From a virus (Duplodnaviria; Heunggongvirae; Uroviricota; Caudoviricetes), in IMG/VR virus record IMGVR_UViG_2734482779_000007: a DNA stretch of 22,685 nucleotides. One strand, 5' to 3'. Positions within the stretch are counted from its first letter, which is position 1. The number at the start of each line of letters is the position of its first letter. The notes under the pieces are model-generated. The model made no database searches. It was not told where the DNA came from and worked only from the letters and a program-made list of their open reading frames with translations. This document shows, one piece after another, positions 4,211-18,750 of the stretch. Both the position numbers and the translations under genes were made by a program.

Positions 4211-4670
4211 CGCTTTCACCCCACGTCACATCCTGGAATATATGCGACCAGTCGCCTTCGGAAGAGGGCAGACGGGGTTTTGGCTCCGGCAGGTGCTCTG
4301 CTTGCGGTGTGCCCTGACTGTTGCGCGTAATGCGAACGCGTTCCCGCAGGGGGATCGTAAACAGGAGATCGGCGCTGTCATCGTCATTGATAACGGCGGA
4401 AAATTTGATGTCCTGATTACGCTCCGGATTGAGCAACAACTGTGGCTGATTTTCGGATAACCACGCCAGTAGTGGCAGCGTGAGGTCGTCCAGCTCCCCG
4501 GCGTAATCCATGACAAACATCACCATCTGATAGCGGTAAACAAACGAGGGCGTTTCTCCGGTCGTTTCAATGTTGCCGCTCTCCACGAAAATGGTGAATT
4601 TTTCCGGGTTAGCCTGACACCATCGGCATGAACGGGTCATGGCTTCACGCAGGGAATCAGTTTTCAGCAT
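4203..4670 (-). CDS. R: Tail completion protein R (P2 gpR-like)
   Basis: 155-aa ORF MLKTDSLREAMTRSCRWCQANPEKFTIFVESGNIETT...LLAWLSENQPQLL; same length as and collinear with P2 gpR. Confidence 0.8.
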   Translation of the reverse strand: MLKTDSLREAMTRSCRWCQANPEKFTIFVESGNIETTGETPSFVYRYQMVMFVMDYAGELDDLTLPLLAWLSENQPQLLLNPERNQDIKFSAVINDDDSADLLFTIPLRERVRITRNSQGTPQAEHLPEPKPRLPSSEGDWSHIFQDVTWGESDG

Positions 4671-4947
4671 GGTTGTTATCCTCGTTGTTCAGTCGTTGCA
4701 GCCTGCGCTGTTCCAGTAATTCAATGGCCCGTTTATCAGCGTTACAGGTTTCCAGTGCATCCAGAAGGCGGTCGCCCCATATACCGAGATTTCCCCATGT
4801 GGGAGTGTCAGGGAAGGGGGGAGGCGTTACCGGTATGGTCAGCGTCTGCGGTATAAGCCGGACTAACGGCGCTGGCCGTGGCGCGTTCTGCGTGCCTGCG
4901 CAACCTGTCAGTAAAACGAGCGTCAGGCAAAGCGTGGGCGCATTCAT
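4657..4947 (-). CDS. lysC: o-spanin (Rz1/LysC-like outer-membrane lipoprotein)
   Basis: Inside ORF 4657..5061 the in-frame ATG at 4947 gives MNAPTLCLTLVLLTGCAGTQ (signal peptide plus lipobox LTGC) followed by a proline-rich stretch. Starts inside lysB in another frame and runs past its stop, the overlapped spanin architecture seen in P2. Confidence 0.6.
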   Translation of the reverse strand: MNAPTLCLTLVLLTGCAGTQNAPRPAPLVRLIPQTLTIPVTPPPFPDTPTWGNLGIWGDRLLDALETCNADKRAIELLEQRRLQRLNNEDNNHAEN

Positions 4948-8645: not shown

Positions 8646-9482
8646 TCAGAAGTCAGCCAGCTGGTCGGAGGCTGCGCCCGTTGCGGTGAACCGATTCTGC
8701 GGATCGCTGTCCTGCGTGCGCAGTTTTTCCTTCAGTGCTGCCAGCTCTGTGGTCAGTAAAGTGATTTTCTGGCTGTCCTGCTGATGGCGGGTTTCCAGCA
8801 CATTAAAACGGTCGATAATGTCGGCCTGTGACGTTGCGACACCTTCCACCGCTTCCTGAATACGGGAGAAACTGGCGTCATCCGCTTTGCGGCCACGGCC
8901 AATAATCCCCATAACGCGGTTAAACCACTGGGTGCCTTCTTCCTGACGTTGTTCGGTGAGTTCGATAAGTTCTGACTCCATAGCGGCGGTAAACATCGCC
9001 ACGTCTCCCTGCTGACAGTTGAATGTCATCAGTTGCATACGTTGTTGTGCCGCAAAGGCCAGACGTTCCGTGCCCAGGCTGGCAGGGGTGTCGGTCATTG
9101 CCAGCCCGCGCAGGTAAGGGCCTCCCGTGATGGTTGACTGTGGTTCCAGCTCAATACTGGAGTAAATTTTTTTACCATCGTTAAGCAGGGACATCATGCG
9201 AGCGGTCGGCTCAATTTCGGCATACAGTGCCGTGCGACCTGCCAGCGGGCCATCGGTTATGTCTTCGGTGCTCAACCCCACAACATCGCCCATAGCGGAA
9301 AACTCGCTACCGGGGAGTGGTGACAGGATGTGCTCAATATTCACACGTGCACCATAAACGGACGGGTTATAACTGGTGGCGGCAGCTTTCAGCATGTCGC
9401 CGTTGATTTCGCGCCCGTCTGCCGTTACACCGGAGACAGCCACGCGAAACTTTTTGCGGGATGTCTTTTTTTCATTAGCCAT
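8646..9482 (-). CDS. O: Capsid scaffolding protein O (P2 gpO-like)
   Basis: ORF track 8646..9515. The in-frame ATG at 9482 is preceded by AGAGGGG and gives MANEKKTSRKKFRVAVSGVTADGREINGDMLKAAATSYNPSVYGARVNIEHI, matching P2 gpO MAKKVSKFFRIGVEGDTCDGRVIS. ATG 9515 has no SD. Confidence 0.85.
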   Translation of the reverse strand: MANEKKTSRKKFRVAVSGVTADGREINGDMLKAAATSYNPSVYGARVNIEHILSPLPGSEFSAMGDVVGLSTEDITDGPLAGRTALYAEIEPTARMMSLLNDGKKIYSSIELEPQSTITGGPYLRGLAMTDTPASLGTERLAFAAQQRMQLMTFNCQQGDVAMFTAAMESELIELTEQRQEEGTQWFNRVMGIIGRGRKADDASFSRIQEAVEGVATSQADIIDRFNVLETRHQQDSQKITLLTTELAALKEKLRTQDSDPQNRFTATGAASDQLADF

Positions 9483-9636
9483 AGTTTTTGCCCCTCTGAC
9501 TGGTTCTTCAGTCATGATGGCAAAGCGTAACAGGCTGATACAAAGGGCTTTTGTTGTAAGAAAACGGCCAGAACAGGGGGTTAAGGAGAACAGTTTCGCG
9601 CGCGGGTAATCTTCCTGTAATTACTCAGGGGGAGCA
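9483..9636. promoter_or_regulatory. Divergent late-promoter region between O (leftward) and P (rightward)
   Basis: 154-bp gap between divergently transcribed late operons, equivalent to P2 P_O/P_P. Contains palindrome ACAAA-GGGCT-TTTGT at 9540-9554. No canonical TGT-N12-ACA box found, so promoter positions are not assigned. Confidence 0.4.
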
Positions 9637-11388
9637 ATGATTCAGGACGCTTTTGTGCGCCAGCGTGCGCGGCAACTTTACTGGCAGGGTTATCCGCCCG
9701 CAGAAATATCACGTCTGATGGGAATAAACCCGAACACGATTTATGCGTGGAAAAAACGCGACCAGTGGGATGAAACGCCACCTGTGCAGCGTGTCACGCA
9801 GTCCATCGATGCGCGCCTCATCCAGCTTACTGAAAAACAGAATAAAACAGGCGGTGACTTTAAGGAAATAGACCTGCTGACCCGGCAGCTTAAAAAGCTG
9901 CATGATGGCCAGCCGGATGTGATGGCCGCAGGAAAGAAAGGCCGGGCGAAAAAACTCAAAAATCATTTCACGCCGGAACAGATTGCCGCACTGCGGGACA
10001 AAATCATCAGCAGGCTGGAGTGGCATCAGCGGGGCTGGTTTGACTCCCTGACCCTTTGCAGGGAAGCCGGGATACGTAACAGGATGATCCTGAAATCCCG
10101 ACAGATTGGGGCGACCTGGTATTTTGCACAGGAAGCTCTGCTGATGGCGCTGCGTGACGATGTGGCGCAACCTTACCAGCGTAACCAGATTTTTTTGTCT
10201 GCGTCGCGTCGTCAGGCGTTCCAGTTTAAAAGCATTATTCAGAAGGCCGCGGCTGAAGTTGATGTGGAGCTGAAAGGGGGCGATAAAATCATCCTCTCCA
10301 ACGGCGCAGAGCTGCATTTTCTCGGCACTTCTGCTGCGTCGGCACAGTCCTATACGGGCAATTTTTATTTTGATGAATTCTTCTGGGTCAGTCGCTTTGC
10401 TGAACTGCGCAAGGTGGCTGGCGCTATGGCAACCCTCAGCGGACTGCGGCGCACCTACTTCTCCACGCCATCCACCGAAACGCACGAGGCATACGCCTAC
10501 TGGAACGGCGACCGCTGGAACGAGAAAAAGGCCACGCATAAACGCCAGCGTTTTTCTGTGGACTGGAAAACGCTGCATAACGGGCTTATCTGCCCTGACC
10601 GGACGTGGCGGCAAATTGTCACGCTGGAAGATGTGGTTAATCACGGCTGGAAACACACCGATATTGATGAAATTCGTGATGAAAACACCGAAGACGAGTT
10701 CCTCAATCTCTATATGTGTGAGTTTGTCCGCGAAGGGGAATCGGCATTTAACCTGAATATCCTGATTGGCTGTGGCGTTGACGGATACGATGACTGGAAA
10801 GACTGGAAACCTTTTGCTCCCCGCCCGATGGGGAATCGTCCGGTGTGGATTGGGTATGACGCAAACGGCAGCAGTGGCAACGGCGACAGCGGCGCTGTGT
10901 CCGTGGTGGTTCCTCCGGCTGTTCCTGGTGGCCGTTTTCGAACGGTGGAGACGCGACGCGTTCAGGGGCTGGAGTTTGAAGAACAGGCCAGAGTCATTGA
11001 AGAGTTCACGTGTCGCTACAACGTGGAACACATCGGCATTGATGTGACGGGCGGGAACGGGGAGGCTGTTTATCAGATAGTGAAACGGTTTTTCCCTGCT
11101 GCTATTCCGTACACCTTCACGCTGTCATCAAAACGGTCGCTGGTACTGAAAATGCTGCAAATAATGCGTGCCGGGCGGTGGGAATACGATCGCGCCGAAC
11201 GCGAGCTGGTCGCGGCCTTTAACGCCGTGCGTAAGGTGAAAACACCGGGCGGCTTTATCACTTACGAAACGGACCGCGCGAGGGGGATCAGCCACGGCGA
11301 CCTTGCGTGGGCAACCATGCTTGCTGTCATTAACGAACCGATTGGCGGCGAAGGAGAAAACGAGCGTTTCACGGTTATGGAGTTCTGA
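9637..11388 (+). CDS. P: Terminase large (ATPase) subunit P (P2 gpP-like)
   Basis: 583-aa ORF preceded by GGGGGAG SD; size and position (divergent from O, followed by the portal with TGATG overlap) match P2 gpP. Confidence 0.9.
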   Translation: MIQDAFVRQRARQLYWQGYPPAEISRLMGINPNTIYAWKKRDQWDETPPVQRVTQSIDARLIQLTEKQNKTGGDFKEIDLLTRQLKKLHDGQPDVMAAGKKGRAKKLKNHFTPEQIAALRDKIISRLEWHQRGWFDSLTLCREAGIRNRMILKSRQIGATWYFAQEALLMALRDDVAQPYQRNQIFLSASRRQAFQFKSIIQKAAAEVDVELKGGDKIILSNGAELHFLGTSAASAQSYTGNFYFDEFFWVSRFAELRKVAGAMATLSGLRRTYFSTPSTETHEAYAYWNGDRWNEKKATHKRQRFSVDWKTLHNGLICPDRTWRQIVTLEDVVNHGWKHTDIDEIRDENTEDEFLNLYMCEFVREGESAFNLNILIGCGVDGYDDWKDWKPFAPRPMGNRPVWIGYDANGSSGNGDSGAVSVVVPPAVPGGRFRTVETRRVQGLEFEEQARVIEEFTCRYNVEHIGIDVTGGNGEAVYQIVKRFFPAAIPYTFTLSSKRSLVLKMLQIMRAGRWEYDRAERELVAAFNAVRKVKTPGGFITYETDRARGISHGDLAWATMLAVINEPIGGEGENERFTVMEF

Positions 11389-12434
11389 TGAGCAGAAAAA
11401 ATAAAAAAGTGCGCATGAGTTCACGCATTGATCTCGCTGATGCGCTCAGGAAAGAATCATCGCTCAGTGCATTCACATTTGATGGTCCTTATCGCCTGAC
11501 CGGGCATGACCTGCTGGACAATATGTACTGTGCTGATAACGGGCGGTGGTATGAAACCCCGGTGGACTGGTACGGTCTGGCAAGAGCAGCCCGGCAAACG
11601 TCCTGGCATCAGTCTGCGCTTTACTTTAAGCGCAATGTATTACTCGGTTGCTACATCCCGCACCCGCTGCTTTCCCGGCAGGATTTCTCGGCGCTGGCGC
11701 TGGACTGGTTTGTGTTCGGTAACGCATTCCTTGAGCTTCGAAGCAATATGCTCGGCGAACCGCTTAAATTACGGCACGCCCTGGCGAAATACATGCGACG
11801 CGGAAGCGATCTTGAATCATGGTGGTATGTGCAGGATGGTAAGGACGCGTTTCAGTTTCGCCCTGGCAAAGTGTGCCACCTGATGAATCCTGACATTAAC
11901 CAGGAAATCTACGGCATGCCGGAATATCTCGGCGCATTACTCTCGGCCAGCCTGTCTCATTCGGCGGACATGTTCAGAAAACTGTATTACGACAATGGAT
12001 CCCACGCCGGGTGCATCATCTACATCGGTGCAGCGCAGGTAAACCGCGAAAGCATGGACTCCCTGAAAGAAACGTTACAGGGTGCGCGTGGTGGTGGTGC
12101 GTTTAAAAACGTGCTCATCCATGCGCCCAACGGGGGCAAAGAGGGGGTGCAAATTTTGCCGTTCCAGCAGATCACCGCAAAGGATGAGTTCATGAATGTT
12201 AAGGCGGCATCCCGTGATGATGTGCTGGCTGCGCACCGCGTTCCGCCGCAACTGATGGGGGCGATGCCGGGCGAAAAAAGTGCGTTTGGTGATGTGGAGA
12301 AGGCCGCGCGGGTTTACGCAATTAACGAGCTGATGCCTGTCATGGAGGCCATGAAGCACATCAATGACTGGCTTGGCGAAGAGGTGATCCGCTTTAACCC
12401 TTACGCACTGTTAGACACCCAGCCCACATCCTGA
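11388..12434 (+). CDS. Q: Portal protein Q (P2 gpQ-like)
   Basis: 348-aa ORF translationally coupled to P; size and position match P2 gpQ, the last gene before cos. Confidence 0.9.
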   Translation: MSRKNKKVRMSSRIDLADALRKESSLSAFTFDGPYRLTGHDLLDNMYCADNGRWYETPVDWYGLARAARQTSWHQSALYFKRNVLLGCYIPHPLLSRQDFSALALDWFVFGNAFLELRSNMLGEPLKLRHALAKYMRRGSDLESWWYVQDGKDAFQFRPGKVCHLMNPDINQEIYGMPEYLGALLSASLSHSADMFRKLYYDNGSHAGCIIYIGAAQVNRESMDSLKETLQGARGGGAFKNVLIHAPNGGKEGVQILPFQQITAKDEFMNVKAASRDDVLAAHRVPPQLMGAMPGEKSAFGDVEKAARVYAINELMPVMEAMKHINDWLGEEVIRFNPYALLDTQPTS

Positions 12435-12460
12435 CGCGCTTCGCTTGTCTGCTGCTTCGC

Positions 12461-12485
12461 CGGGGCATAAAAAATTTATGCCCCG
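12461..12485 (+). terminator. Candidate terminator hairpin after portal gene Q
   Basis: 11-bp perfect stem CGGGGCATAAA / TTTATGCCCCG with 3-nt loop, 27 nt after the Q stop. No U-run follows. Confidence 0.35.
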
Positions 12486-12858
12486 ACTCTCCAGCTCCTG
12501 TATCAGTCAGATAATTTCACGACGCTTTCCTGCTGATTGCCATCATCGACAGTCAGACTCTTACGCAATCCCACCGCGTTGACTGCATGTTCTCGCCGTC
12601 TCAGTGCGATTTTGACGGCCTTACCTTTCACCCCATCAAATCAAAAGCCCTCACGTCTTTTTCACGCTCAGCGTGAGAAATACAGCCATTCTGTTGTATC
12701 TCTGCGACATCGTTCAGGGAATGCTATTTACCCCCTGAAACGCGGGCTGTTCCCCCGTCACTTGCGCGCAGAAAAAACGCGTTTTTTTGTGCATGCACGG
12801 ATCCCTGACGGATCCAGCCACCATGCGGGCCGGAAGGGTAAAAAGTCGTTCAAAAAAA

Positions 12859-12885
12859 TTGTGCAAATTTGTGCACTATTGTGCA
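12859..12885. repeat. Three direct repeats of TTGTGCA phased 10 bp apart
   Basis: TTGTGCA at 12859-12865, 12869-12875 and 12879-12885 (one helical turn apart), flanked by A7 upstream and hairpin AGGGCGAT / ATCGCCCT (12888-12911) downstream. Confidence 0.5.
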
Positions 12886-12923
12886 GAAGGGCGATGCGCG
12901 ATTATCGCCCTGGTTTGGCAGTT

Positions 12924-13130
12924 CTAAATACGTTTCACAATACCCACAAGATTGCCAGGTGACAGTTCTGCTGTGTGTTTAATATCGTCCACTATGTACG
13001 ATGCATGTTCACGGTTAATCGCATAGATATAAAATGAGTACTTCCGTTCATCTGCCATAAAGTCGACAGAAAATAATTTCCATGTACGCCCCTCGACTTC
13101 AACCTGTAACGGCATATTTATTCCGCTCAC
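12924..13130 (-). CDS. Hypothetical small protein (68 aa)
   Basis: ORF MSGINMPLQVEVEGRTWKLFSVDFMADERKYSFYIYAINREHASYIVDDIKH...; first codon GTG at 13130 is preceded by AAAGGAG. Last gene of the minus-strand small-ORF cluster before the cos region. Confidence 0.4.
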   Translation of the reverse strand: MSGINMPLQVEVEGRTWKLFSVDFMADERKYSFYIYAINREHASYIVDDIKHTAELSPGNLVGIVKRI

Positions 13131-13156
13131 GCATAGTCTCCTTTTGAAAATTCTAA

Positions 13157-13597
13157 TTAAATATTTTCGTTACGAAGCATGGCGGCGCGGCAGGCTTCAT
13201 CAACCATAGCTTCTACGTTTTCGAGAAGTACGTAACTGTACTGCTGCCCACTAACCCATTCTTTTCTGCGAGGTAATGCGCGTGGGTCAGATACAATAGC
13301 TCGCAAACGTTCCAGAACAGTTGGTACTGCTGGCGGCTCGCGATACAGCGAGATTACACGACGCGGGTCCGCATATTTATCTGGCGGACACTGAAATATC
13401 TCACCGAAACCATACTTCCTGACATCGCGCAGTTCCTCTTCATCAGTCCATGCCACCGGTTCTGCTTCCAGCGATGCCAGAGCAATCCGTGCCAGCTCTT
13501 CCGCTTCTTCTGCTGGCAGTACAACGTTGCTACCAGGTCCGTATGTTTCGCGCCACTGCTTGATTGTCAGCAGTCGCTCTTTGGTTATAGTTGTCAT
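13157..13597 (-). CDS. Hypothetical protein (146 aa)
   Basis: ORF MTTITKERLLTIKQWRETYGPGSNVVLPAEEAEELARIALASLEAEPVAWTDEEELRDV...; ATG overlaps upstream stop (ATGA). No recognisable domain. Confidence 0.5.
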   Translation of the reverse strand: MTTITKERLLTIKQWRETYGPGSNVVLPAEEAEELARIALASLEAEPVAWTDEEELRDVRKYGFGEIFQCPPDKYADPRRVISLYREPPAVPTVLERLRAIVSDPRALPRRKEWVSGQQYSYVLLENVEAMVDEACRAAMLRNENI

Positions 13598-13803
13598 TTG
13601 TTAACCCTCAAAACTTTATGCCCGGGCGCAAAAGCACGTGTTTTGTCTTTGCTTATTCGCCAGCCATCCTTACGCGCCTCTTTTGCACAACCAGCCCATG
13701 ACGTACCGATATACTCTCCGAAGTCTGGCGACTTATATTTGCCATCTGTACACTGGAGGCAATCACAATAGAGATGCATGGTGTAACTTGCAGCGATAGC
13801 CAT
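13594..13803 (-). CDS. Hypothetical small Cys-rich protein (69 aa)
   Basis: Within ORF 13594..13824 the ATG at 13803 is preceded by AAAGGAGAG and gives MAIAASYTMHLYCDCLQCTDGKYKSPDFGEYIGTSWAGCAKEARKDGW (C-x-C-x2-C...C, possible metal site). Confidence 0.45.
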   Translation of the reverse strand: MAIAASYTMHLYCDCLQCTDGKYKSPDFGEYIGTSWAGCAKEARKDGWRISKDKTRAFAPGHKVLRVNK

Positions 13804-13804
13804 A

Positions 13805-13978
13805 TCACTCTCCTTTGATACCAATGTTTACAGTCTGGCAAGCTTCTCTGAGCACCCAGTCAACAGCGTCTTTCCATGCTCCGGTTTCGGTTGGCGGATT
13901 CTCACGCTTTACCAGTTCGCCGTTCTCAGTCCATGCCAGCTTGATGTTGGTGGAGCCGTCGTCGATACAAATTTTCAT
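13805..13978 (-). pseudogene. ParM/StbA-like N-terminal fragment (57 codons), probable remnant
   Basis: Unlisted minus-strand ORF, ATG 13978 preceded by [43 protein letters not shown]... begins like plasmid R1 ParM ([21 protein letters not shown], phosphate-1 motif) but stops after 57 codons. Confidence 0.35.
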
Positions 13979-14012
13979 GTCGCTTTTCCTTATGTTGATT
14001 AATTAATCGTTT

Positions 14013-14037
14013 ACGGGATTCTGAAATCCCGTTTTTT
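14013..14037 (+). terminator. Plus-strand intrinsic-terminator-like hairpin 1 downstream of gene A
   Basis: Stem ACGGGATT (14013-14020) / AATCCCGT (14025-14032), loop CTGA, followed by T6 (14032-14037) on the plus strand. Confidence 0.5.
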
Positions 14038-14048
14038 CCTGTTTTGTG

Positions 14049-14077
14049 CGCGCTTCAAATATCGCTGCGCGTTTTTT
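14049..14077 (+). terminator. Plus-strand terminator-like hairpin 2 overlapping the A stop codon
   Basis: Stem CGCGC (14049-14053) / GCGCG (14067-14071), 13-nt loop, followed by T6 (14072-14077). Confidence 0.35.
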
Positions 14078-16877
14078 GCTCATTTACGGGATTCGTGAGT
14101 CCCGTTTCTGTCTGTTTTTTGTTTTCACTGGTCAGGCCACCCCGCAGCAGGTCTGCTTTGCGGCGGGCGCGTTCAGTGGTTTCACTGATTCTCTGTGCGT
14201 GCTCTGTGTCGCGGATGGCGCTCAGCATGTCAGAAAGCACGGTAACGGGTGTTTTCATGGTGTTCTGGTCCTGCTGAAGTGTGGATGCCAGGCGTGCGGC
14301 GGCTTCAGGGTCTGATGCCCCCAGCTGCGCCAGATAGCTGGCGACCGGGTTATGGCGGATCTCCGTGCTGCTTACGCCGTGATTACGGCTCAGGCGTTGC
14401 CAGAGCTGCGTGATTCGGCTGTCCGGGCGGGTATCCGGTTTGCGTACAATTTCAAATCCCTGCGGTGCAATGATGCTGCCGTCAATGTACAGACTGCCGC
14501 CCCGTAACAGGTGCTGCATCTGTTGTTCACCGATATGCAGGCCGAGAGATTCAGCAGACTCCCGCCATTCTTTAGCGAGTAATTCGTGGTTATCAGGCAA
14601 AGGCCGCTGCTGTTTGCGGCTCTGTGTCCAGCTCTGCATTTCATCACTGCTGTTTTTTGCCTGTTTGTCACGAAGCGAACGCATCAGCGCCCGGCGTTCG
14701 TGCCGTTTCAGTGAGCGCATCCATTCGTTCACTTCAACGCCGTCAGGGAGCTGCGGCCACGGTGCTGGCCGTTCTTCCGGCTGTTCTGTCCCGTTGTTGT
14801 CCGTTTCCTGTACACGGGGACAGTTATTGCCACGAGTCCAAGGGGCGGCAGGGCCGCCCTGAAGGTCAAAACCATTTTCGCGGGTGCTGTCTTCCGCTTC
14901 CGGTTTACGTCTTACCAGCTTCCAGTTATCCGGATGCGTGCACACACGGGAGGATTCCCCGATGAGTGGTGACCAGATCCCGTAAATCTGTACGCTCTGT
15001 TCACCGTAATCGTTCAGCTCATCTGCGAGGTCGTAGGCGGTGCGAATCAGGTAGTCTTTGCGTGGAACAAGTACGCCGCCCTGTTTCTCTATGTAGGTGG
15101 CAAAACATCCGGCATCAGCGGCAGCGAGTACCGCATCCATTGCGTCATCCTTCAGCTGTTGCGGGCCTTCCGGGTTGCGTGCCATCTGGCTGGCAAGGCG
15201 ACGCAGTTCACGCCACACCTGACGGGAGGGGATACCAAAGAACTGGAACTGGCGGACACGGTGAAGGCGCGCCCAGCCGATGGCGCGTTCCACGCTCTCG
15301 GCCATTGACTTTCCGGTTTCGTGGTCAACGCGTGGCTTGCCCGTTTTCGGGTCGGTGCCATCCACGGCGCGGCTGTCCAGGTTCTTTCCGATGTAGGTGG
15401 CGATGTAGCTGGTTGGCGTGCCTTTTGAGCCGTCTACGTACTCCGCCTTAAAACGCGGAGTAATATCATTGCCCAGCTCGTGGCGGTCTTCCTGAATGGC
15501 AATATCACGGGTGTGGGACACAATGGTGTCGATTTCTTCCGGATGAGCAAAGACCATCATATGCCAGTGCACGGTGCCGTCATGGTGAGGCTCCACCGTG
15601 CGGATGCCATACCAGCGCAGGCCGTCGCGGTTCAATTTCTTGCGGACCGCTGCAAAAAACGTGTTAACCAGGTAATCGCTGGAGTCGCGCATGGTGGCCC
15701 CGTTCCATTTGGGATTCGGATGACCGTTCTCTGTTGTGGCGTGGTATTTTGACGGGCAGGTGACAGTCAGAAACACCGCTTTGTCGCCACGGGCTTCGGC
15801 CAGAAGTTCCAGCCCCTTCATGGTGGCCATCATTTCTGCCTTACGGTGAACCGGGTTACTTACTCCCGCGTAATACACTGTCTCGAGATCAATCGTGAAC
15901 CCGTCTTCGTTTTCCAGCATGAAACTTTTCAGGAAGTCGCGTGTTTTCTCGCGCTGTGCGCGAAATTCACTTAATGCATCCTGACTCAGATAGGGGGATG
16001 TTTTTCTGGAAACCAGACAGGCAGCGCGGAGTTGTTCCTCTCTCCATTCGCAACGTAAAAGCCACAATTTGCGTTTCCACCAGTCCGCACAGGTCAGGCG
16101 AAGGATTGCACCCGGCAGCAGTTCTGTGTCCGGTTCGTTCCTCCGGTCTTTGTCTGTTGTCAGTGCGTCATAATGCGGAGGCACTGTGTGCAGATGTAAC
16201 GCCATGCGAGCCAGCAGCTGATACGCCTTCAGCGTTATATCCATGGTCAGCTCGCCATCGGTCGCGCCAAAGCCATCGCAGAGTTTTTCGAAGGTGCTGC
16301 TGAACATTGCCGCCGTCATGACGGCCAGTGTCTGTATCTGGTGTTTGTTGAGCTGCGGCAGGTAAAGTAAATCGTCCAGACGTTCACGTCCGGCAAGGGA
16401 GCGATAACCCGGAGTCAGCCAGCGTCCGTCAGTGCGGGCCAGACGTTCCAATATTTTGCGCAGGGTTCCGCGTGCATAGCGTTCCGCCTGCCAGCTCTTT
16501 TTGCCTTTCCGGCGATCGGCTTCCTGTTTTTTGCGCAGGAAGGAGAGGTGGCGAATAAGCGGATCGCGCAGATAGGACGGCAGCAGGCGCAGCGAGGCCA
16601 TGGCTTCATCCACCGCACCGCGTGCCTGTTTTCTGGCTTCTCTGGCCAGTGTGATGGTTTTGTCCTGCTTTTCCTGTGCGTCCAGGCTTTTATTAATCAG
16701 GTTGCCCAGCGGTGTGGCGGAGAACGCCGCGTCAGCCATTTCCTGGCGGCGCTCGTTCTCTGCCCGGTAGGCATCCAGCCAGGAGGAAAGTGCGGATTCA
16801 GGTGCGGGGATCCCCGTTCCTTCACGTCCTACTGCGTGGCGCGGTTGTTGCCAGTCCCTGATGTACTCTGCCGTCAT
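14055..16877 (-). CDS. A: Replication initiation endonuclease A (rolling-circle HUH initiator, P2 gpA family)
   Basis: 940-aa ORF, the largest in the early operon. Contains ...GIRTVEPHHDGTVHWHMMVF... (HUH-type metal site) and ...TSYIATYIGKN... (catalytic Tyr region) as in P2 gpA, but is longer than P2 A (~761 aa). Confidence 0.85.
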   Translation of the reverse strand: MTAEYIRDWQQPRHAVGREGTGIPAPESALSSWLDAYRAENERRQEMADAAFSATPLGNLINKSLDAQEKQDKTITLAREARKQARGAVDEAMASLRLLPSYLRDPLIRHLSFLRKKQEADRRKGKKSWQAERYARGTLRKILERLARTDGRWLTPGYRSLAGRERLDDLLYLPQLNKHQIQTLAVMTAAMFSSTFEKLCDGFGATDGELTMDITLKAYQLLARMALHLHTVPPHYDALTTDKDRRNEPDTELLPGAILRLTCADWWKRKLWLLRCEWREEQLRAACLVSRKTSPYLSQDALSEFRAQREKTRDFLKSFMLENEDGFTIDLETVYYAGVSNPVHRKAEMMATMKGLELLAEARGDKAVFLTVTCPSKYHATTENGHPNPKWNGATMRDSSDYLVNTFFAAVRKKLNRDGLRWYGIRTVEPHHDGTVHWHMMVFAHPEEIDTIVSHTRDIAIQEDRHELGNDITPRFKAEYVDGSKGTPTSYIATYIGKNLDSRAVDGTDPKTGKPRVDHETGKSMAESVERAIGWARLHRVRQFQFFGIPSRQVWRELRRLASQMARNPEGPQQLKDDAMDAVLAAADAGCFATYIEKQGGVLVPRKDYLIRTAYDLADELNDYGEQSVQIYGIWSPLIGESSRVCTHPDNWKLVRRKPEAEDSTRENGFDLQGGPAAPWTRGNNCPRVQETDNNGTEQPEERPAPWPQLPDGVEVNEWMRSLKRHERRALMRSLRDKQAKNSSDEMQSWTQSRKQQRPLPDNHELLAKEWRESAESLGLHIGEQQMQHLLRGGSLYIDGSIIAPQGFEIVRKPDTRPDSRITQLWQRLSRNHGVSSTEIRHNPVASYLAQLGASDPEAAARLASTLQQDQNTMKTPVTVLSDMLSAIRDTEHAQRISETTERARRKADLLRGGLTSENKKQTETGLTNPVNEQKTRSDI
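14086..14120 (+). terminator. Plus-strand terminator-like hairpin 3 inside the 3' end of gene A
   Basis: Stem ACGGGA (14086-14091) / TCCCGT (14100-14105) followed by a T-rich tract ending in T6 (14115-14120). TTTACGGGATTC is a direct repeat of hairpin 1 (14010-14021 vs 14083-14094). Confidence 0.4.
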
Positions 16878-16883
16878 AGTGAT

Positions 16884-17249
16884 TTACTTCGTCATGCCAT
16901 TCAGGGTGTCGCGGCAGACTGTAGCCAGCCGCTGAATTTCCAGCACGGTGTCTTCTGTGTCGGCATGGCGATGTGTGATGCGGATGCTGTCGGCAATCAC
17001 ATCGACGATTGCAGAGGATGGGCGCTGGTAAATGCCAATAACGGACGGGGTGCCACCTTCAATGCGGTAAAGCCTGTAATTTCCCTCGTTGCTGTCAATC
17101 ATGTAGCGACCATCAATAACAATCTTTCCGTCAGCGAGCTGCGGTACAGGCAGGGATTTCAGGTACATGTCATAACGTTCACGCACGCGAACGGCAAGAT
17201 CACGCTCTGTGTTGAGCAGGTATTCAAGAAAGTCGTTGGCGAGAATCAT
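16884..17249 (-). CDS. Hypothetical early protein (121 aa)
   Basis: ORF MILANDFLEYLLNTERDLAVRVRERYDMYLKSL..., AGAGGA SD, 6 bp upstream of A. No recognisable domain. Confidence 0.5.
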   Translation of the reverse strand: MILANDFLEYLLNTERDLAVRVRERYDMYLKSLPVPQLADGKIVIDGRYMIDSNEGNYRLYRIEGGTPSVIGIYQRPSSAIVDVIADSIRITHRHADTEDTVLEIQRLATVCRDTLNGMTK

Positions 17250-17321
17250 TGCGGCAATCCTCTGGTTACAGATGTGCGAAGGCCTCCCGCCGCAAGGTGC
17301 AGGAAAGGCCCGGAACAGGAA

Positions 17322-17552
17322 TTAATGGAGTTTGTTTTGCTGCTGGATGAGCTGCTGAAGCTCGCGCAGATCATCCGCCAGATAACTGAAAACAGCGGAT
17401 GAGTAGAGGTTTGAAAGTTCGCAGCTACGCTCATGCAGCATATTGATGTGCATGATTTTAGCGACGCGGAATGCGCGGGAAAGTCTGCGGTTGATTTCAG
17501 TCTGGATGTGACGACGCTCCGCGATAGCGCGGTGCTGTTTGCGGTTTGCCAT
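17322..17552 (-). CDS. Hypothetical small basic protein (76 aa)
   Basis: ORF MANRKQHRAIAERRHIQTEINRRLSRAFRVAKIMHINMLHERSCELSNLY... (Arg-rich N-terminus, possibly nucleic-acid binding). AAGAGG SD lies within a repeated 9-mer. Confidence 0.45.
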   Translation of the reverse strand: MANRKQHRAIAERRHIQTEINRRLSRAFRVAKIMHINMLHERSCELSNLYSSAVFSYLADDLRELQQLIQQQNKLH

Positions 17553-17730
17553 GATATGTGGCCTCTTGTAGTAAGTTGTGAAAACTCACCATCCAGAGCT
17601 GCGAAACTGTGGGTGGCGAGACGTACGAGGTTCGCAGTACCGGCTACAAGAGATCCCGGCCCGACCGAAGTCGGCCCCGTACGCCCCGCCATAATTCTGA
17701 CGCGAAAAAAACGTGGCAATACAGTACGCA

Positions 17731-17752
17731 CAAAAAAACCGCTGGCGCGGTT
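17731..17752 (-). terminator. Intrinsic terminator (minus strand) downstream of the SPFH cassette
   Basis: Stem ACCGC (17738-17742) / GCGGT (17747-17751), loop TGGC, followed on the minus strand by U7 (plus-strand A-run 17732-17738). A second U7 lies at 17705-17711. Confidence 0.5.
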
Positions 17753-17888
17753 GTGCGCTCTTGTAGTCAGCAGGCTGCGAAACCCGGCACCCGTTTTATG
17801 AGGTGCATCGAAAATGTAACCTGACTGATTGCGGCATGGCAAGCGGTTTTTTTGTGAGAACGGCATACTAAAAAATCCTGATACTGCT

Positions 17889-17913
17889 CCGGCCAGCGGT
17901 TTGCACTGGCCGG
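17889..17913 (-). other. GC-rich hairpin immediately 3' of the SPFH gene
   Basis: Stem CCGGCCAG (17889-17896) / CTGGCCGG (17906-17913), 9-nt loop, starting 7 nt after the TAA stop. No adjacent U-run. Confidence 0.35.
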
Positions 17914-17919
17914 GTGTCA

Positions 17920-18750
17920 TTACTTCACGGGAACGAACGGAACAGCGGTGTTACTGGTCATGTATTGCGGCAGCGTGCCGTTCCATTTGTTGATCGCTTC
18001 CAGCTCCATAACGCCGGGATTCTGGCGCAGAGCTTCGCCGCGTAAACGAATGGCGTCGGCTTCAGCCTGGGCTTTTGTGCGAATGGCATCAGCCTGTCCG
18101 GCAGCTTCTGCGCGCAACATGTTGGCTTCTGCTTCGCGCTGTTTTACTTCCTGTTCGCGTTGCAGGGTTTTCTGGTTTGCCGTGACTTTGGCGTTAATGC
18201 TGTCGATAACGGTTGGCGGATATTCCGGTTTACCGACATAAGAGAGGCTCATTACCTGAATGCCGATGGGTGTCATTTCTGCCTGAATATCTTTAAGTGC
18301 TGAATCCAGCAGTTCAGACTTGCCACCGTCGATGAATTTATCGGTGGTCATTTTGCTGGCCAGTCGGTTGAGTGCGTCGGCGATCTTCTGGCGCAGGTCA
18401 GTGTCGGTAATGTCGTCCACGCCTTTGCGGTAGGTCTGAAACACCGTGGTAACTTTGGATGGATCAACTTTGTAGGCCACGCCGATGTGATAGCCGATGG
18501 TTGTGCCGTCACTCATCTGGAAGTTGAACGGCTCATCGTAAGTCTTCATTTGTTTGAAAGTCGGGAAGATGTAAACCTCTGTATTCCAGCCTGTCCAGTA
18601 GCGGCCAACGCCAACTACTTCGCCGACGCCTTTGTCGTCGCCCAGTTTGTTGACTTTGATTCCCACATTACCTGGCTCAACGCGATCGCAACCAACCAGC
18701 AGGATGGCGGCAAAAAGCGGGAGAATCTGAAAGAGTTTGAATTTCTTCAT
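17920..18750 (-). CDS. SPFH/Band-7 (prohibitin/HflC-like) domain lipoprotein
   Basis: 276-aa ORF. N-terminus MKKFKLFQILPLFAAILLVGC is a lipoprotein signal with lipobox LVGC. Core ...VEPGNVGIKVNKLGDDKGVGEVVGVGRYWTGWNTEVYIFPTFKQ... fits the SPFH fold. C-terminus is an A/E/Q/R-rich predicted coiled coil (QREAEANMLRAEAAGQADAIRTKAQAEADAIRLRGEA) as in HflK/HflC/QmcA. ATG overlaps upstream stop (ATGA). Confidence 0.8.
   Translation of the reverse strand: MKKFKLFQILPLFAAILLVGCDRVEPGNVGIKVNKLGDDKGVGEVVGVGRYWTGWNTEVYIFPTFKQMKTYDEPFNFQMSDGTTIGYHIGVAYKVDPSKVTTVFQTYRKGVDDITDTDLRQKIADALNRLASKMTTDKFIDGGKSELLDSALKDIQAEMTPIGIQVMSLSYVGKPEYPPTVIDSINAKVTANQKTLQREQEVKQREAEANMLRAEAAGQADAIRTKAQAEADAIRLRGEALRQNPGVMELEAINKWNGTLPQYMTSNTAVPFVPVK

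Follow-up and report, generated by a model that had tools for sequence, protein, structure and literature searches.

The small open reading frames (ORFs) between replication gene A and cos in this prophage are probably the remnant of a deletion followed by shuffled small phage genes and reflect ordinary turnover at a variable hotspot, not a new defence system. The window (the whole stretch of 22,685 nucleotides that we analysed) is a P88-type (Xuanwuvirus) P2-like prophage of E. coli, and the small-ORF segment is the cos-proximal tail of its early (replication) operon. Based on our results, we conclude that the ancestral cargo at this position was parM-parR, an actin-like segregation pair of the R1 type, and that behind it lay an array whose small genes are swapped at conserved stop/Shine-Dalgarno junctions. 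An illegitimate deletion of 1,805 bp at a GTTC microhomology left an in-frame chimera of 57 codons, and a Mom-like XF1762 cassette was lost later by recombination between repeated junctions of 15-22 nt. The three remaining genes, encoding proteins of 69, 146 and 68 amino acids, are intact, and each belongs to a large family of phage genes.

The four ORFs lie on the minus strand at 12924-13978, as had been predicted, in the A-Q interval that is a known variable hotspot of P2-like phages (PMC9122126). Their strand is that of the entire early operon, from the Cox-like gene to A. Gene A (14055-16877, minus strand; 940 aa; Pfam Phage_GPA, E 1.6e-129) is the last core gene of this operon, and its product is 96-99% identical to the 'replication endonuclease' of P88-type prophages; the small ORFs follow downstream. 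The size originally given for the interval, about 1.1 kb, fits the ORF block (1.05 kb) but not the full distance from the A stop to the Q stop, which is 1.62 kb. Similarly, the description of the ORFs as chained by ATGA overlaps, with good Shine-Dalgarno sites, applies only in part. The overlap is found between the 69- and 146-aa genes, whereas the junction between the 57-codon ORF and the 69-aa gene reads TGA-T-ATG and a 26-nt spacer separates the 146- and 68-aa genes. The Shine-Dalgarno sites of the 69- and 68-aa genes are good, but those of the 57-codon and 146-aa ORFs are only fair.

The 57-codon ORF (13805-13978, minus strand) was correctly recognized as a ParM-like fragment. Residues 1-28 of its product match the N-terminal domain of ParM (Pfam StbA_N, E 3e-8; profile positions 1-28 of 158). 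Protein comparison and blastn breakpoints against an undeleted relative, L001, resolve it into two parts that share one reading frame: ParM residues 1-21 (13916-13978) and, behind them, residues 69-104 of a hypothetical protein of 104 aa (13805-13915). The 3' part of the chimera thus encodes the final 36 residues of the 104-aa product, and this C-terminal part matches PHROG 26213. The deletion junction is at 13915-13918, where the 4-bp GTTC occurs in both parental sequences, and the DNA missing relative to L001 carried parM codons 22-319, parR, a ClpX-zinc-finger gene and the 5' two-thirds of the 104-aa ORF. A full-length actin-fold ATPase (about 320 aa, with StbA_N and the ParM C-terminal domain) is absent from the window, as is a Plasmid_stab_B (ParR) gene, which falls inside the deletion. 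The chimera cannot act as ParM, and segregation activity is impossible in the window because the ATPase body, ParR and a demonstrated parC are all missing. The suggestion that the block is residue of a larger lost system therefore holds, in that the deletion can be traced base by base, but what was lost was a parM-parR module and not a defence system.

Undeleted relatives preserve the ancestral arrangement. In L001, L002, L003, L008 and L010 the order is A, parM, parR, variable small genes, cos and Q. Their parM encodes 319 aa with both StbA_N and the ParM C-terminal domain (both are present in the L001 protein), and their parR is a Plasmid_stab_B gene. Intact parMR of this type is present in 1278 of 5426 complete E. 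coli genomes, and 1453 of the 1455 places where it occurs are chromosomal. No gene of the undeleted relative matched PADLOC at E <= 0.01. Literature searches gave no paper devoted to ParM in P88-type phages and nothing on XF1762, and searches with the RefSeq accessions of the 69-aa protein and of XF1762-family proteins also returned nothing.

The later steps can be followed at the junction CATTGGTATCAAAGGAGAGTGA (13805-13826, minus strand), which encodes '...IKGE*' and holds the Shine-Dalgarno site of the 69-aa gene. In relatives, the 15-nt core of this junction, ATCAAAGGAGAGTGA, occurs on either side of an XF1762-family cassette (163 aa) that the window lacks. In L019-L023, XF1762 is located exactly between the positions corresponding to window 13805 and 13826, and L024 is like the window. 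Because the core is repeated on both flanks of the cassette, we attribute the loss of XF1762 to recombination between the junctions. Most carriers of the fusion allele still have XF1762.

The exact sequence of the chimera recurs in many independent assemblies; its fusion junction is found in no complete RefSeq E. coli genome and in many draft assemblies. Within the ORFs, the copies of the deletion allele do not differ at all (100% identity), and the A genes of the carriers are only 95.6-99% identical. Strain 266917_2 has an independent parM deletion that also ends in the 104-aa ORF. One reading of these observations is that the whole block is inert debris, functionless at present and kept because the deletion is recent. 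The 57-codon ORF is plainly a by-product of the deletion, the identity among allele copies leaves little time for decay, and pseudogenes are common at P2 hotspot loci (PMC13586616). However, none of the other three ORFs is truncated, and prophages that retain parMR carry identical copies of them. Conserved residues and purifying selection are seen in their families, and the allele is found together with A genes that diverge by up to 4.4%, which suggests viable, recombining phages. We consider the debris reading improbable.

The block is bordered by candidate regulatory features. A 42-nt direct repeat in two copies (D1, 14007-14121) straddles the A stop codon and lies upstream of the parM start. 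Each copy contains the palindrome ACGGGATTC-N4-(A/G)(A/G)TCCCGT (inverted repeat I1), and the palindromes score as terminator-like on the plus strand only. The repeats may be a parC-like site, an operator or plus-strand terminators. Upstream of the chimera, the coding strand shows no consensus sigma-70 promoter. At the other end of the block, a terminator-like hairpin with a T-run (12851-12876, on the minus, coding strand) is located ~50 nt past the stop codon of the 68-aa gene and is likely the end of the transcription unit ahead of cos. The non-coding, cos-containing spacer between Q and the small ORFs (12435-12923) includes the Q terminator hairpin (12461-12485) and is flanked by gene Q (portal, 11388-12434). 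The 19-nt cohesive-end (cos) sequence of P2 is absent from the window, even allowing 3 mismatches; the record of Xuanwuvirus P884B11 starts at about window 12840.

The three full-length small ORFs are more than chance reading frames: PHROG families match every one of them (E 3e-26 to 4e-36), most codon changes in the 69-aa gene are synonymous (below) and the 68-aa family has invariant residues. Searches of Pfam and NCBIfam with these three proteins found nothing, including no nuclease, NTPase, membrane or sensor domain. PDB sequence searches with the single proteins and with the profiles A1, A2 and A3 found nothing meaningful, and Foldseek against BFVD returned uncharacterised phage proteins only.

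The 69-aa protein (13594-13803, minus strand; phrog_926) has that length from its ATG and would have 76 aa if an upstream TTG were used. It had been described as Cys-rich; it contains four cysteines, and the conserved ones are the three (C13, C15 and C18) of a CxCxxC motif. Compared with lambdoid and P1-like copies, the gene has 5-7 synonymous codon changes and 1 non-synonymous change, a pattern by which we judge it to be under purifying selection; the gene is intact. The AF2 model has a pLDDT of 79, and no fold or PDB relative was found. Homologues are present in Stx phages, P1-like phage-plasmids and virulent Ackermannviridae. Together with the 5' module of the 146-aa gene, the gene is 93-97% identical at the DNA level in Stx phages, where the two lie between exo and xis, and the same combination occurs, at this level of identity, in about 376 plasmids, mostly non-mobilizable. 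The listed plasmids with the 69-aa gene are ~70-250 kb, mostly 90-130 kb, and we take them to be P1-like phage-plasmids.

The 146-aa protein (13157-13597, minus strand; phrog_660/phrog_60) is a mosaic 'ea-type' protein with more than 4,597 homologues. It consists of N-terminal and central modules that elsewhere are fused to DUF551, Ead/Ea22 or DUF550 domains, and alignment A2 shows variable blocks between the conserved joints ALASLEAEPVAW, PPAPxVP and ACRAAML. The protein has no Pfam match at E <= 1, PF13935 (Ead_Ea22) and PF04448 (DUF551) included. It is 76-81% identical, over 98-100% of the query, to PF04448-bearing proteins of 222-233 aa, and 94% identical over 72% of the query to PF13935 proteins; what it has in common with Ead/Ea22-like and DUF551 proteins is the modular N-terminal and central blocks.

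The original prediction allowed that the set could be a toxin-antitoxin-like module, which as a pair or triplet would stabilise the prophage. The genes are small, overlapping and translationally coupled, and an ea-type gene with an ATGA overlap consistently follows the 69-aa gene. This downstream partner ranges from 86 to 285 aa, however, and is highly mosaic, with modules exchanged freely, unlike a co-evolving pair. In Ackermannviridae the 69-aa gene is found alone or adjoining the 68-aa gene, and Pfam, NCBIfam and PADLOC reveal no toxin or antitoxin domain. We regard a toxin-antitoxin function as very improbable.

The 68-aa protein (12924-13130, minus strand; phrog_10509) starts at a GTG behind the Shine-Dalgarno site AAAGGAGA. 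Its fold, three strands and a helix, is predicted confidently (pLDDT 92.5), and its family has 80 representatives at 50% clustering. Homologues are found in the virulent Taipeivirus, Certrevirus and Kagunavirus, and homologues of the 69- and 68-aa proteins occur in virulent Ackermannviridae, Vequintavirinae and Kagunavirus. Adjacency of the two genes was confirmed only in Taipeivirus KWBSE43-6 and IME250; the single-protein search gave only four loci, comprising three near-identical relatives and one 66%-identical match (a 154,938-bp contig). A concatenated 69+68-aa query gave 101 'full-length' places that we rejected, the Stx-phage ones examined being tblastn extensions into an unrelated 72-aa membrane-like ORF (933W ST933Wp07; hhalign probability 0.2%). 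Seven apparent matches to the 68-aa query in P0210 (1,837 aa), a carbohydrate-binding-module repeat protein, were spurious.

The 68-aa protein could be a distant relative of T7 Gp2 that stops or redirects host transcription early in infection. Gp2 (PF16857; PDB 2wnm, 2lmc, 4llg) is of similar size and, like the predicted fold of the 68-aa protein, has a small sheet packed on one helix. The profile and fold similarities between them are weak and in register, with scores that are not significant, and hhalign of the 68-aa family against the Gp2 family gives a probability of 43%. PF16857 does not match the 68-aa protein of the window, and only 1 of 44 family members matches it (E 0.11). R56 and R58 of Gp2 contact the beta-prime jaw and are essential for polymerase binding. 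Both are invariant in alignment A4, whereas alignment A3 of the 68-aa family has no conserved C-terminal arginine pair, and the two proteins do not have an acidic character in common. We regard a relationship to Gp2 as unlikely. We are equally doubtful of a broader proposal, that the 68-aa protein is a very distant Gp2-type branch or another inhibitor of a host enzyme and that it and the 69-aa protein form a cassette for early host takeover or counter-defence, carried in the P2 'defence' hotspot.

The other function originally suggested was miniature defence. Under this reading, the prophage would express the three intact ORFs as a new, compact system for anti-phage defence or superinfection exclusion. 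The position is a documented P2-like defence hotspot (PMC9122126), in 19% of P2 elements the defence loci contain unknown genes only (PMC13586616), and without ParR the operon could be constitutively on. As had been noted, nothing resembles tin, old or a defence family: all four proteins lack a PADLOC match (including Old and Tin) at E <= 1. Such absence of HMM matches counts against defence but is not decisive at a P2 hotspot, because six of eight unknown-gene P4 loci were protective when tested (PMC13586616). Other observations weigh against it. The genes do not travel as a unit, since many different ea-type genes accompany the 69-aa gene and most such loci lack the 68-aa gene. Lambdoid copies are in the pL early operon and not in positions expressed in the lysogen, the 69- and 68-aa families are found in strictly virulent phages, and the nuclease, NTPase, membrane and sensor domains are all lacking. 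Some genes that virulent and temperate phages have in common are active in superinfection exclusion. We nevertheless consider a prophage-expressed defence system quite unlikely.

We favour hotspot turnover that has left genes with an early, phage-serving role; gene context and host range point to this role over prophage defence or toxin-antitoxin activity. Assuming read-through from gene A into the small ORFs, the three intact genes would be transcribed with or just after A, ending at the hairpin at 12851-12876. We suspect that they serve the phage early in lytic growth and do not protect the lysogen, and that their products are probably small binders of host or phage proteins, acting in host takeover, counter-defence or the tuning of lysis and lysogeny. 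Apart from holding ribosomes on the mRNA ahead of the 69-aa gene, the chimera would have no function of its own, and a ParR-repressed promoter before it, if there is one, would now be unrepressed.

The P2-like 'defence hotspot' does not always hold defence: about a quarter of E. coli genomes have a segregation pair and early accessory genes there, and such accessory genes are common to lambdoid, P1-like and even virulent phages. The window documents, at base level, both the erosion of cargo by microhomology deletion and its reshuffling at repeated stop/Shine-Dalgarno junctions. Hotspot-based mining for defence systems should exclude families of the phrog_926, phrog_660 and phrog_10509 types, and the 69- and 68-aa families are reasonable candidates in screens for small host-binding phage proteins. 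These findings open no long-standing question and will not surprise a specialist.

The cargo of the A-Q interval in P88-type prophages (Rousset et al. 2022, PMC9122126) and that of the window agree in lineage, position, flanking A, cos and Q, and upstream palindromes, and the 69-aa, ea-type and 68-aa genes of the window are 98-100% identical to those of L001 and L002. The window differs in that parM is cut to 21 codons and parR, the ClpX-zinc-finger gene and the XF1762 cassette are missing. Compared with the type II ParMRC (StbA/StbB) system of plasmid R1, the window keeps the first 21 codons of ParM, its start codon context and the upstream region, but not the ATPase body, ParR or a demonstrated parC. 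P2 tin and old occupy the same map position (A to cos) as the window genes but have no sequence or domain relationship to them; transcribed from promoters of their own, the two P2 genes work from the lysogen, whereas the window genes have the orientation of the early operon and belong to families found in virulent phages.

Arrays of small, tightly packed mosaic genes that, like those of the window, end an early operon are also found in lambda and Stx phages (the exo-xis or 'ea' region) and in P22 and P1-like phages (the ead/eaa region). The exo-xis genes are among the earliest transcribed (PMC10834534), and the pro-lysogenic phenotype reported from this region is a feature of ea22. The array in the window lies behind a rolling-circle replication gene of the P2 type, not behind exo/bet/gam, and its 146-aa protein is without the Ead_Ea22 and DUF551 signatures. 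Ea22 is built from exchangeable blocks (PMC10834534), and so is the ea-type protein of the window.

At the A-Q interval, a known hotspot, the window carries a rare deletion derivative of a cargo type that is common and has been described before. At the DNA level, the window shares 93-98% identity with Escherichia phage P88 (Peduoviridae, Xuanwuvirus) and with many E. coli prophages. It is a P2-like prophage in the orientation opposite to the usual P2 map, with the scaffold gene O (8646-9515, minus strand) followed by the terminase gene P (9637-11388, plus) and the portal gene Q (11388-12434, plus). Approximately 490 bp of cos-containing non-coding DNA separates Q from four small minus-strand ORFs, beyond which lies the replication gene A (14055-16877, minus; Pfam Phage_GPA, E 1.6e-129). 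The four ORFs sit exactly where the original prediction placed them and have the sizes it gave: 57 aa (13805-13978), 69 aa (13594-13803, phrog_926), 146 aa (13157-13597, phrog_660/60) and 68 aa (12924-13130, phrog_10509). Chaining by ATGA overlaps, also predicted, holds only between the 69- and 146-aa genes; the 57- and 69-aa ORFs meet at TGA-T-ATG, and a 26-nt spacer separates the 146- and 68-aa genes. Shine-Dalgarno sequences are strong ahead of the 69- and 68-aa genes, and a hairpin with a T-run on the coding (minus) strand (12876-12851) probably ends the unit before cos. Three closely spaced copies of TTGTGCA (12855-12890) overlap this terminator-like hairpin, just to the right of the probable cos (~12840).

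To the right of A, the rest of the early operon continues on the same strand with a Cox-like gene, DUF4761, DUF4754, an SPFH protein and an Ash-like gene; the integrase gene lies on the other strand. The SPFH/Band 7 family protein (17920-18750, minus; E 4e-31) is encoded mid-operon and precedes the Ash-like gene and A. The Ash-like ORF (17246-17920) encloses two matches at the Rfam gathering level, one to C4 antisense RNA (17609-17696, minus; 81 bits) and one to the Hfq-binding RNA isrK (17732-17806, minus; 66.7 bits). Together these probably represent a P1/P4-style antisense immunity element within a P2-like phage.

The ancestral cargo of the interval includes a segregation module. In relatives, A is followed by parM, parR, a set of variable small genes, cos and then Q. 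Their parM encodes 319 aa with both ParM domains, parR encodes a 103-aa Plasmid_stab_B protein, and the small genes encode a ClpX-type zinc-finger protein, a 104-aa hypothetical protein, a 163-aa XF1762-family protein, the 69-aa protein, an ea-type protein of 86-240 aa and the 68-aa protein. Of 5426 complete E. coli genomes, 1278 carry the parM-parR pair (6849-8124 in L001, an undeleted P88-type relative) in at least 80% intact form, in agreement with a published remark that a putative partition system occupies the A-Q hotspot in about one in four E. coli P2-like phages (PMC9122126). Many arrangements of the type "StbA + Plasmid_stab_B + hypothetical..." are listed in the supplement of that study (PMC9122126). 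The pair is chromosomal in 1453 of 1455 places, 98% of its traces are at least 80% intact, and nearly all copies lie within an integrase-bearing prophage. A plasmid segregation pair is faithfully kept by an integrating phage.

Two alignments to L001 define what was lost from the window. Window 13915-16109, covering A, the intergenic region and the first 64 nt of parM, corresponds to L001 8061-10255, and window 13805-13918 corresponds to L001 6142-6255, the 3' end of the 104-aa ORF. The two alignments share GTTC, found in both parental sequences; therefore, 1,805 bp were removed and two ORFs were joined. The resulting chimera fuses ParM residues 1-21 in frame with residues 69-104 of the 104-aa protein. 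In Pfam it matches the ParM N-terminal domain over that domain's first 28 positions (StbA_N; E 3e-8), and its own C-terminal half matches phrog_26213. The event is a textbook microhomology deletion that produced the 57-codon ORF as a by-product. The suggestion that the small ORFs are residue left after loss of a larger system was correct, but what was lost is a segregation module, parM-parR.

Complete RefSeq E. coli genomes lack the window's junction. Draft assemblies have the exact 57-aa protein in 47 index blocks, and one such locus (GCA_021115835.1) is 99.6% identical to the window. Backbones with the fusion allele have A genes 95.6-99% identical to that of the window and cargo ORFs that are 100% identical, a combination that suggests a viable, recombining phage population. 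The same locus has been damaged independently in two other strains. A separate deletion in strain 266917_2 (L007 3501-4076) has its breakpoints in parM and in that same 104-aa ORF, and an IS21-family element adjoins the small genes in strain GF60 (L009 5139-7446).

Two 42-nt repeats upstream of the chimera, 73 bp apart, straddle the stop codon of A, one in the A-parM spacer (14007-14048) and the other within the 3' end of A (14080-14121). Their palindromic cores read ACGGGATTC-N4-(A/G)(A/G)TCCCGT, and the repeats could be the ParR-binding site (parC) and operator of the former parMR operon. If they are an operator, loss of ParR would have left the putative promoter unrepressed. Alternatively, the repeats could be plus-strand terminators that halt late transcripts from P-Q.

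The XF1762 gene is also missing from the window. It is kept between the chimera and the 69-aa gene in five of the six fusion-allele places listed individually and, judging by how the look-up grouped them, in 13 more similar ones. The cassette is flanked on both sides by one junction with the core ATCAAAGGAGAGTGA, which encodes "...IKGE stop" and supplies the Shine-Dalgarno sequence of the next gene. These junctions mark the ends of neighbouring cassettes (window 13805-13826; L001 5646-5670 and 6139-6165) and look like joints for cassette gain and loss. Recombination between these repeats explains the absence of XF1762 from the window. The XF1762-family gene (L001 5648-6139), common in this type of array, encodes a protein with a sub-threshold match to the Pfam Mom family (E 1.3e-4). 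The match hints at, but does not establish, a DNA-modification or anti-restriction role for the protein and anti-restriction-type functions in the array.

The three intact ORFs are members of widespread but uncharacterised phage gene families. All four proteins match PHROG families of unknown function, and Pfam and NCBIfam gave nothing for the three intact ones. As originally predicted, none of the four belongs to a known defence family in PADLOC, and PADLOC likewise had no match among the genes deleted or missing relative to L001. In the 69-aa protein, C13, C15 and C18 and a GWRIS...R motif are conserved, and its gene differs from copies in a Stx phage, a P1-like phage and another prophage by 5-7 synonymous codon changes versus one non-synonymous change. 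More than 100 Stx phages carry this gene and the first ~48 codons of the next (93-97% identical) between an Ea22-like gene and DUF551/xis in the early leftward operon. The ORF is intact and unannotated in the RefSeq record of Stx2 phage 86 (L005 5143-5349). The same stretch is in P1-like phage RCS47 and in 376 plasmid records, 360 of them predicted to be non-mobilizable; the listed ones range over ~70-250 kb, most of them 90-130 kb, and we take these plasmids to be phage-plasmids.

Homologues are also found in virulent phages. Protein searches identified 69-aa homologues (35-48% identity) in Ackermannviridae (Kuttervirus, Taipeivirus, Limestonevirus), at a fixed position between genes for a bPH_2 membrane protein and a head-completion protein, and 68-aa homologues (46-66% identity) in Taipeivirus, Certrevirus and Kagunavirus, within runs of tiny genes. 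In Taipeivirus KWBSE43-6 and IME250 the two are adjacent on one strand at the bPH_2/head-completion spot (L012 2294-2704; L014 1292-1704), where other Ackermannviridae have only the 69-aa homologue. Mainly because obligately lytic phages, which have no lysogen to serve, keep these genes, we consider an early role in service of the phage more likely than prophage defence or addiction, a preference drawn from distribution rather than a demonstration. With these homologues and no PADLOC matches, the proposed defence or toxin-antitoxin module is not supported.

One specific early function, inhibition of RNA polymerase, was considered for the 68-aa protein. In its family (80 representatives), A37, H42 and A43 are invariant and G14 and W17 nearly so, and a very confident model (pLDDT 92.5) has three strands and a single helix. 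The gene is unannotated by PGAP in L001 and in L002, another relative (4485-4691), despite an identical, intact ORF. For comparison with Gp2, the T7 inhibitor of host RNA polymerase, the Gp2 sequence was confirmed against the PDB, and its family was collected and aligned. Profile-profile comparison of the two families gave a probability of 43% (P 2.5e-4) over 31 columns, with the structural register kept, and one Kagunavirus homologue carries the deposited name "putative RNA polymerase inhibitor". However, only one of 44 family members matches Pfam RNA_pol_inhib (E 0.11), Gp2 is not among the Foldseek matches to viral models, and the arginines required by Gp2 are not conserved. We therefore keep distant kinship with Gp2 as a lead, and an improbable one.

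The 146-aa protein has more than 4,597 homologues, which align as variable blocks separated by the short conserved joints ALASLEAEPVAW, PPAPxVP and ACRAAML. Other phages have DUF551, Ead/Ea22 or DUF550 domains after these blocks; the window protein ends after ACRAAML, with no Pfam signature of any of the three. Ea22 genes of lambdoid phages lie between exo and xis and are among the first transcribed, and they bias the phage towards lysogeny (PMC10834534, PMC7093339). The lambdoid Ea22 proteins have the same mosaic architecture as the 146-aa protein.
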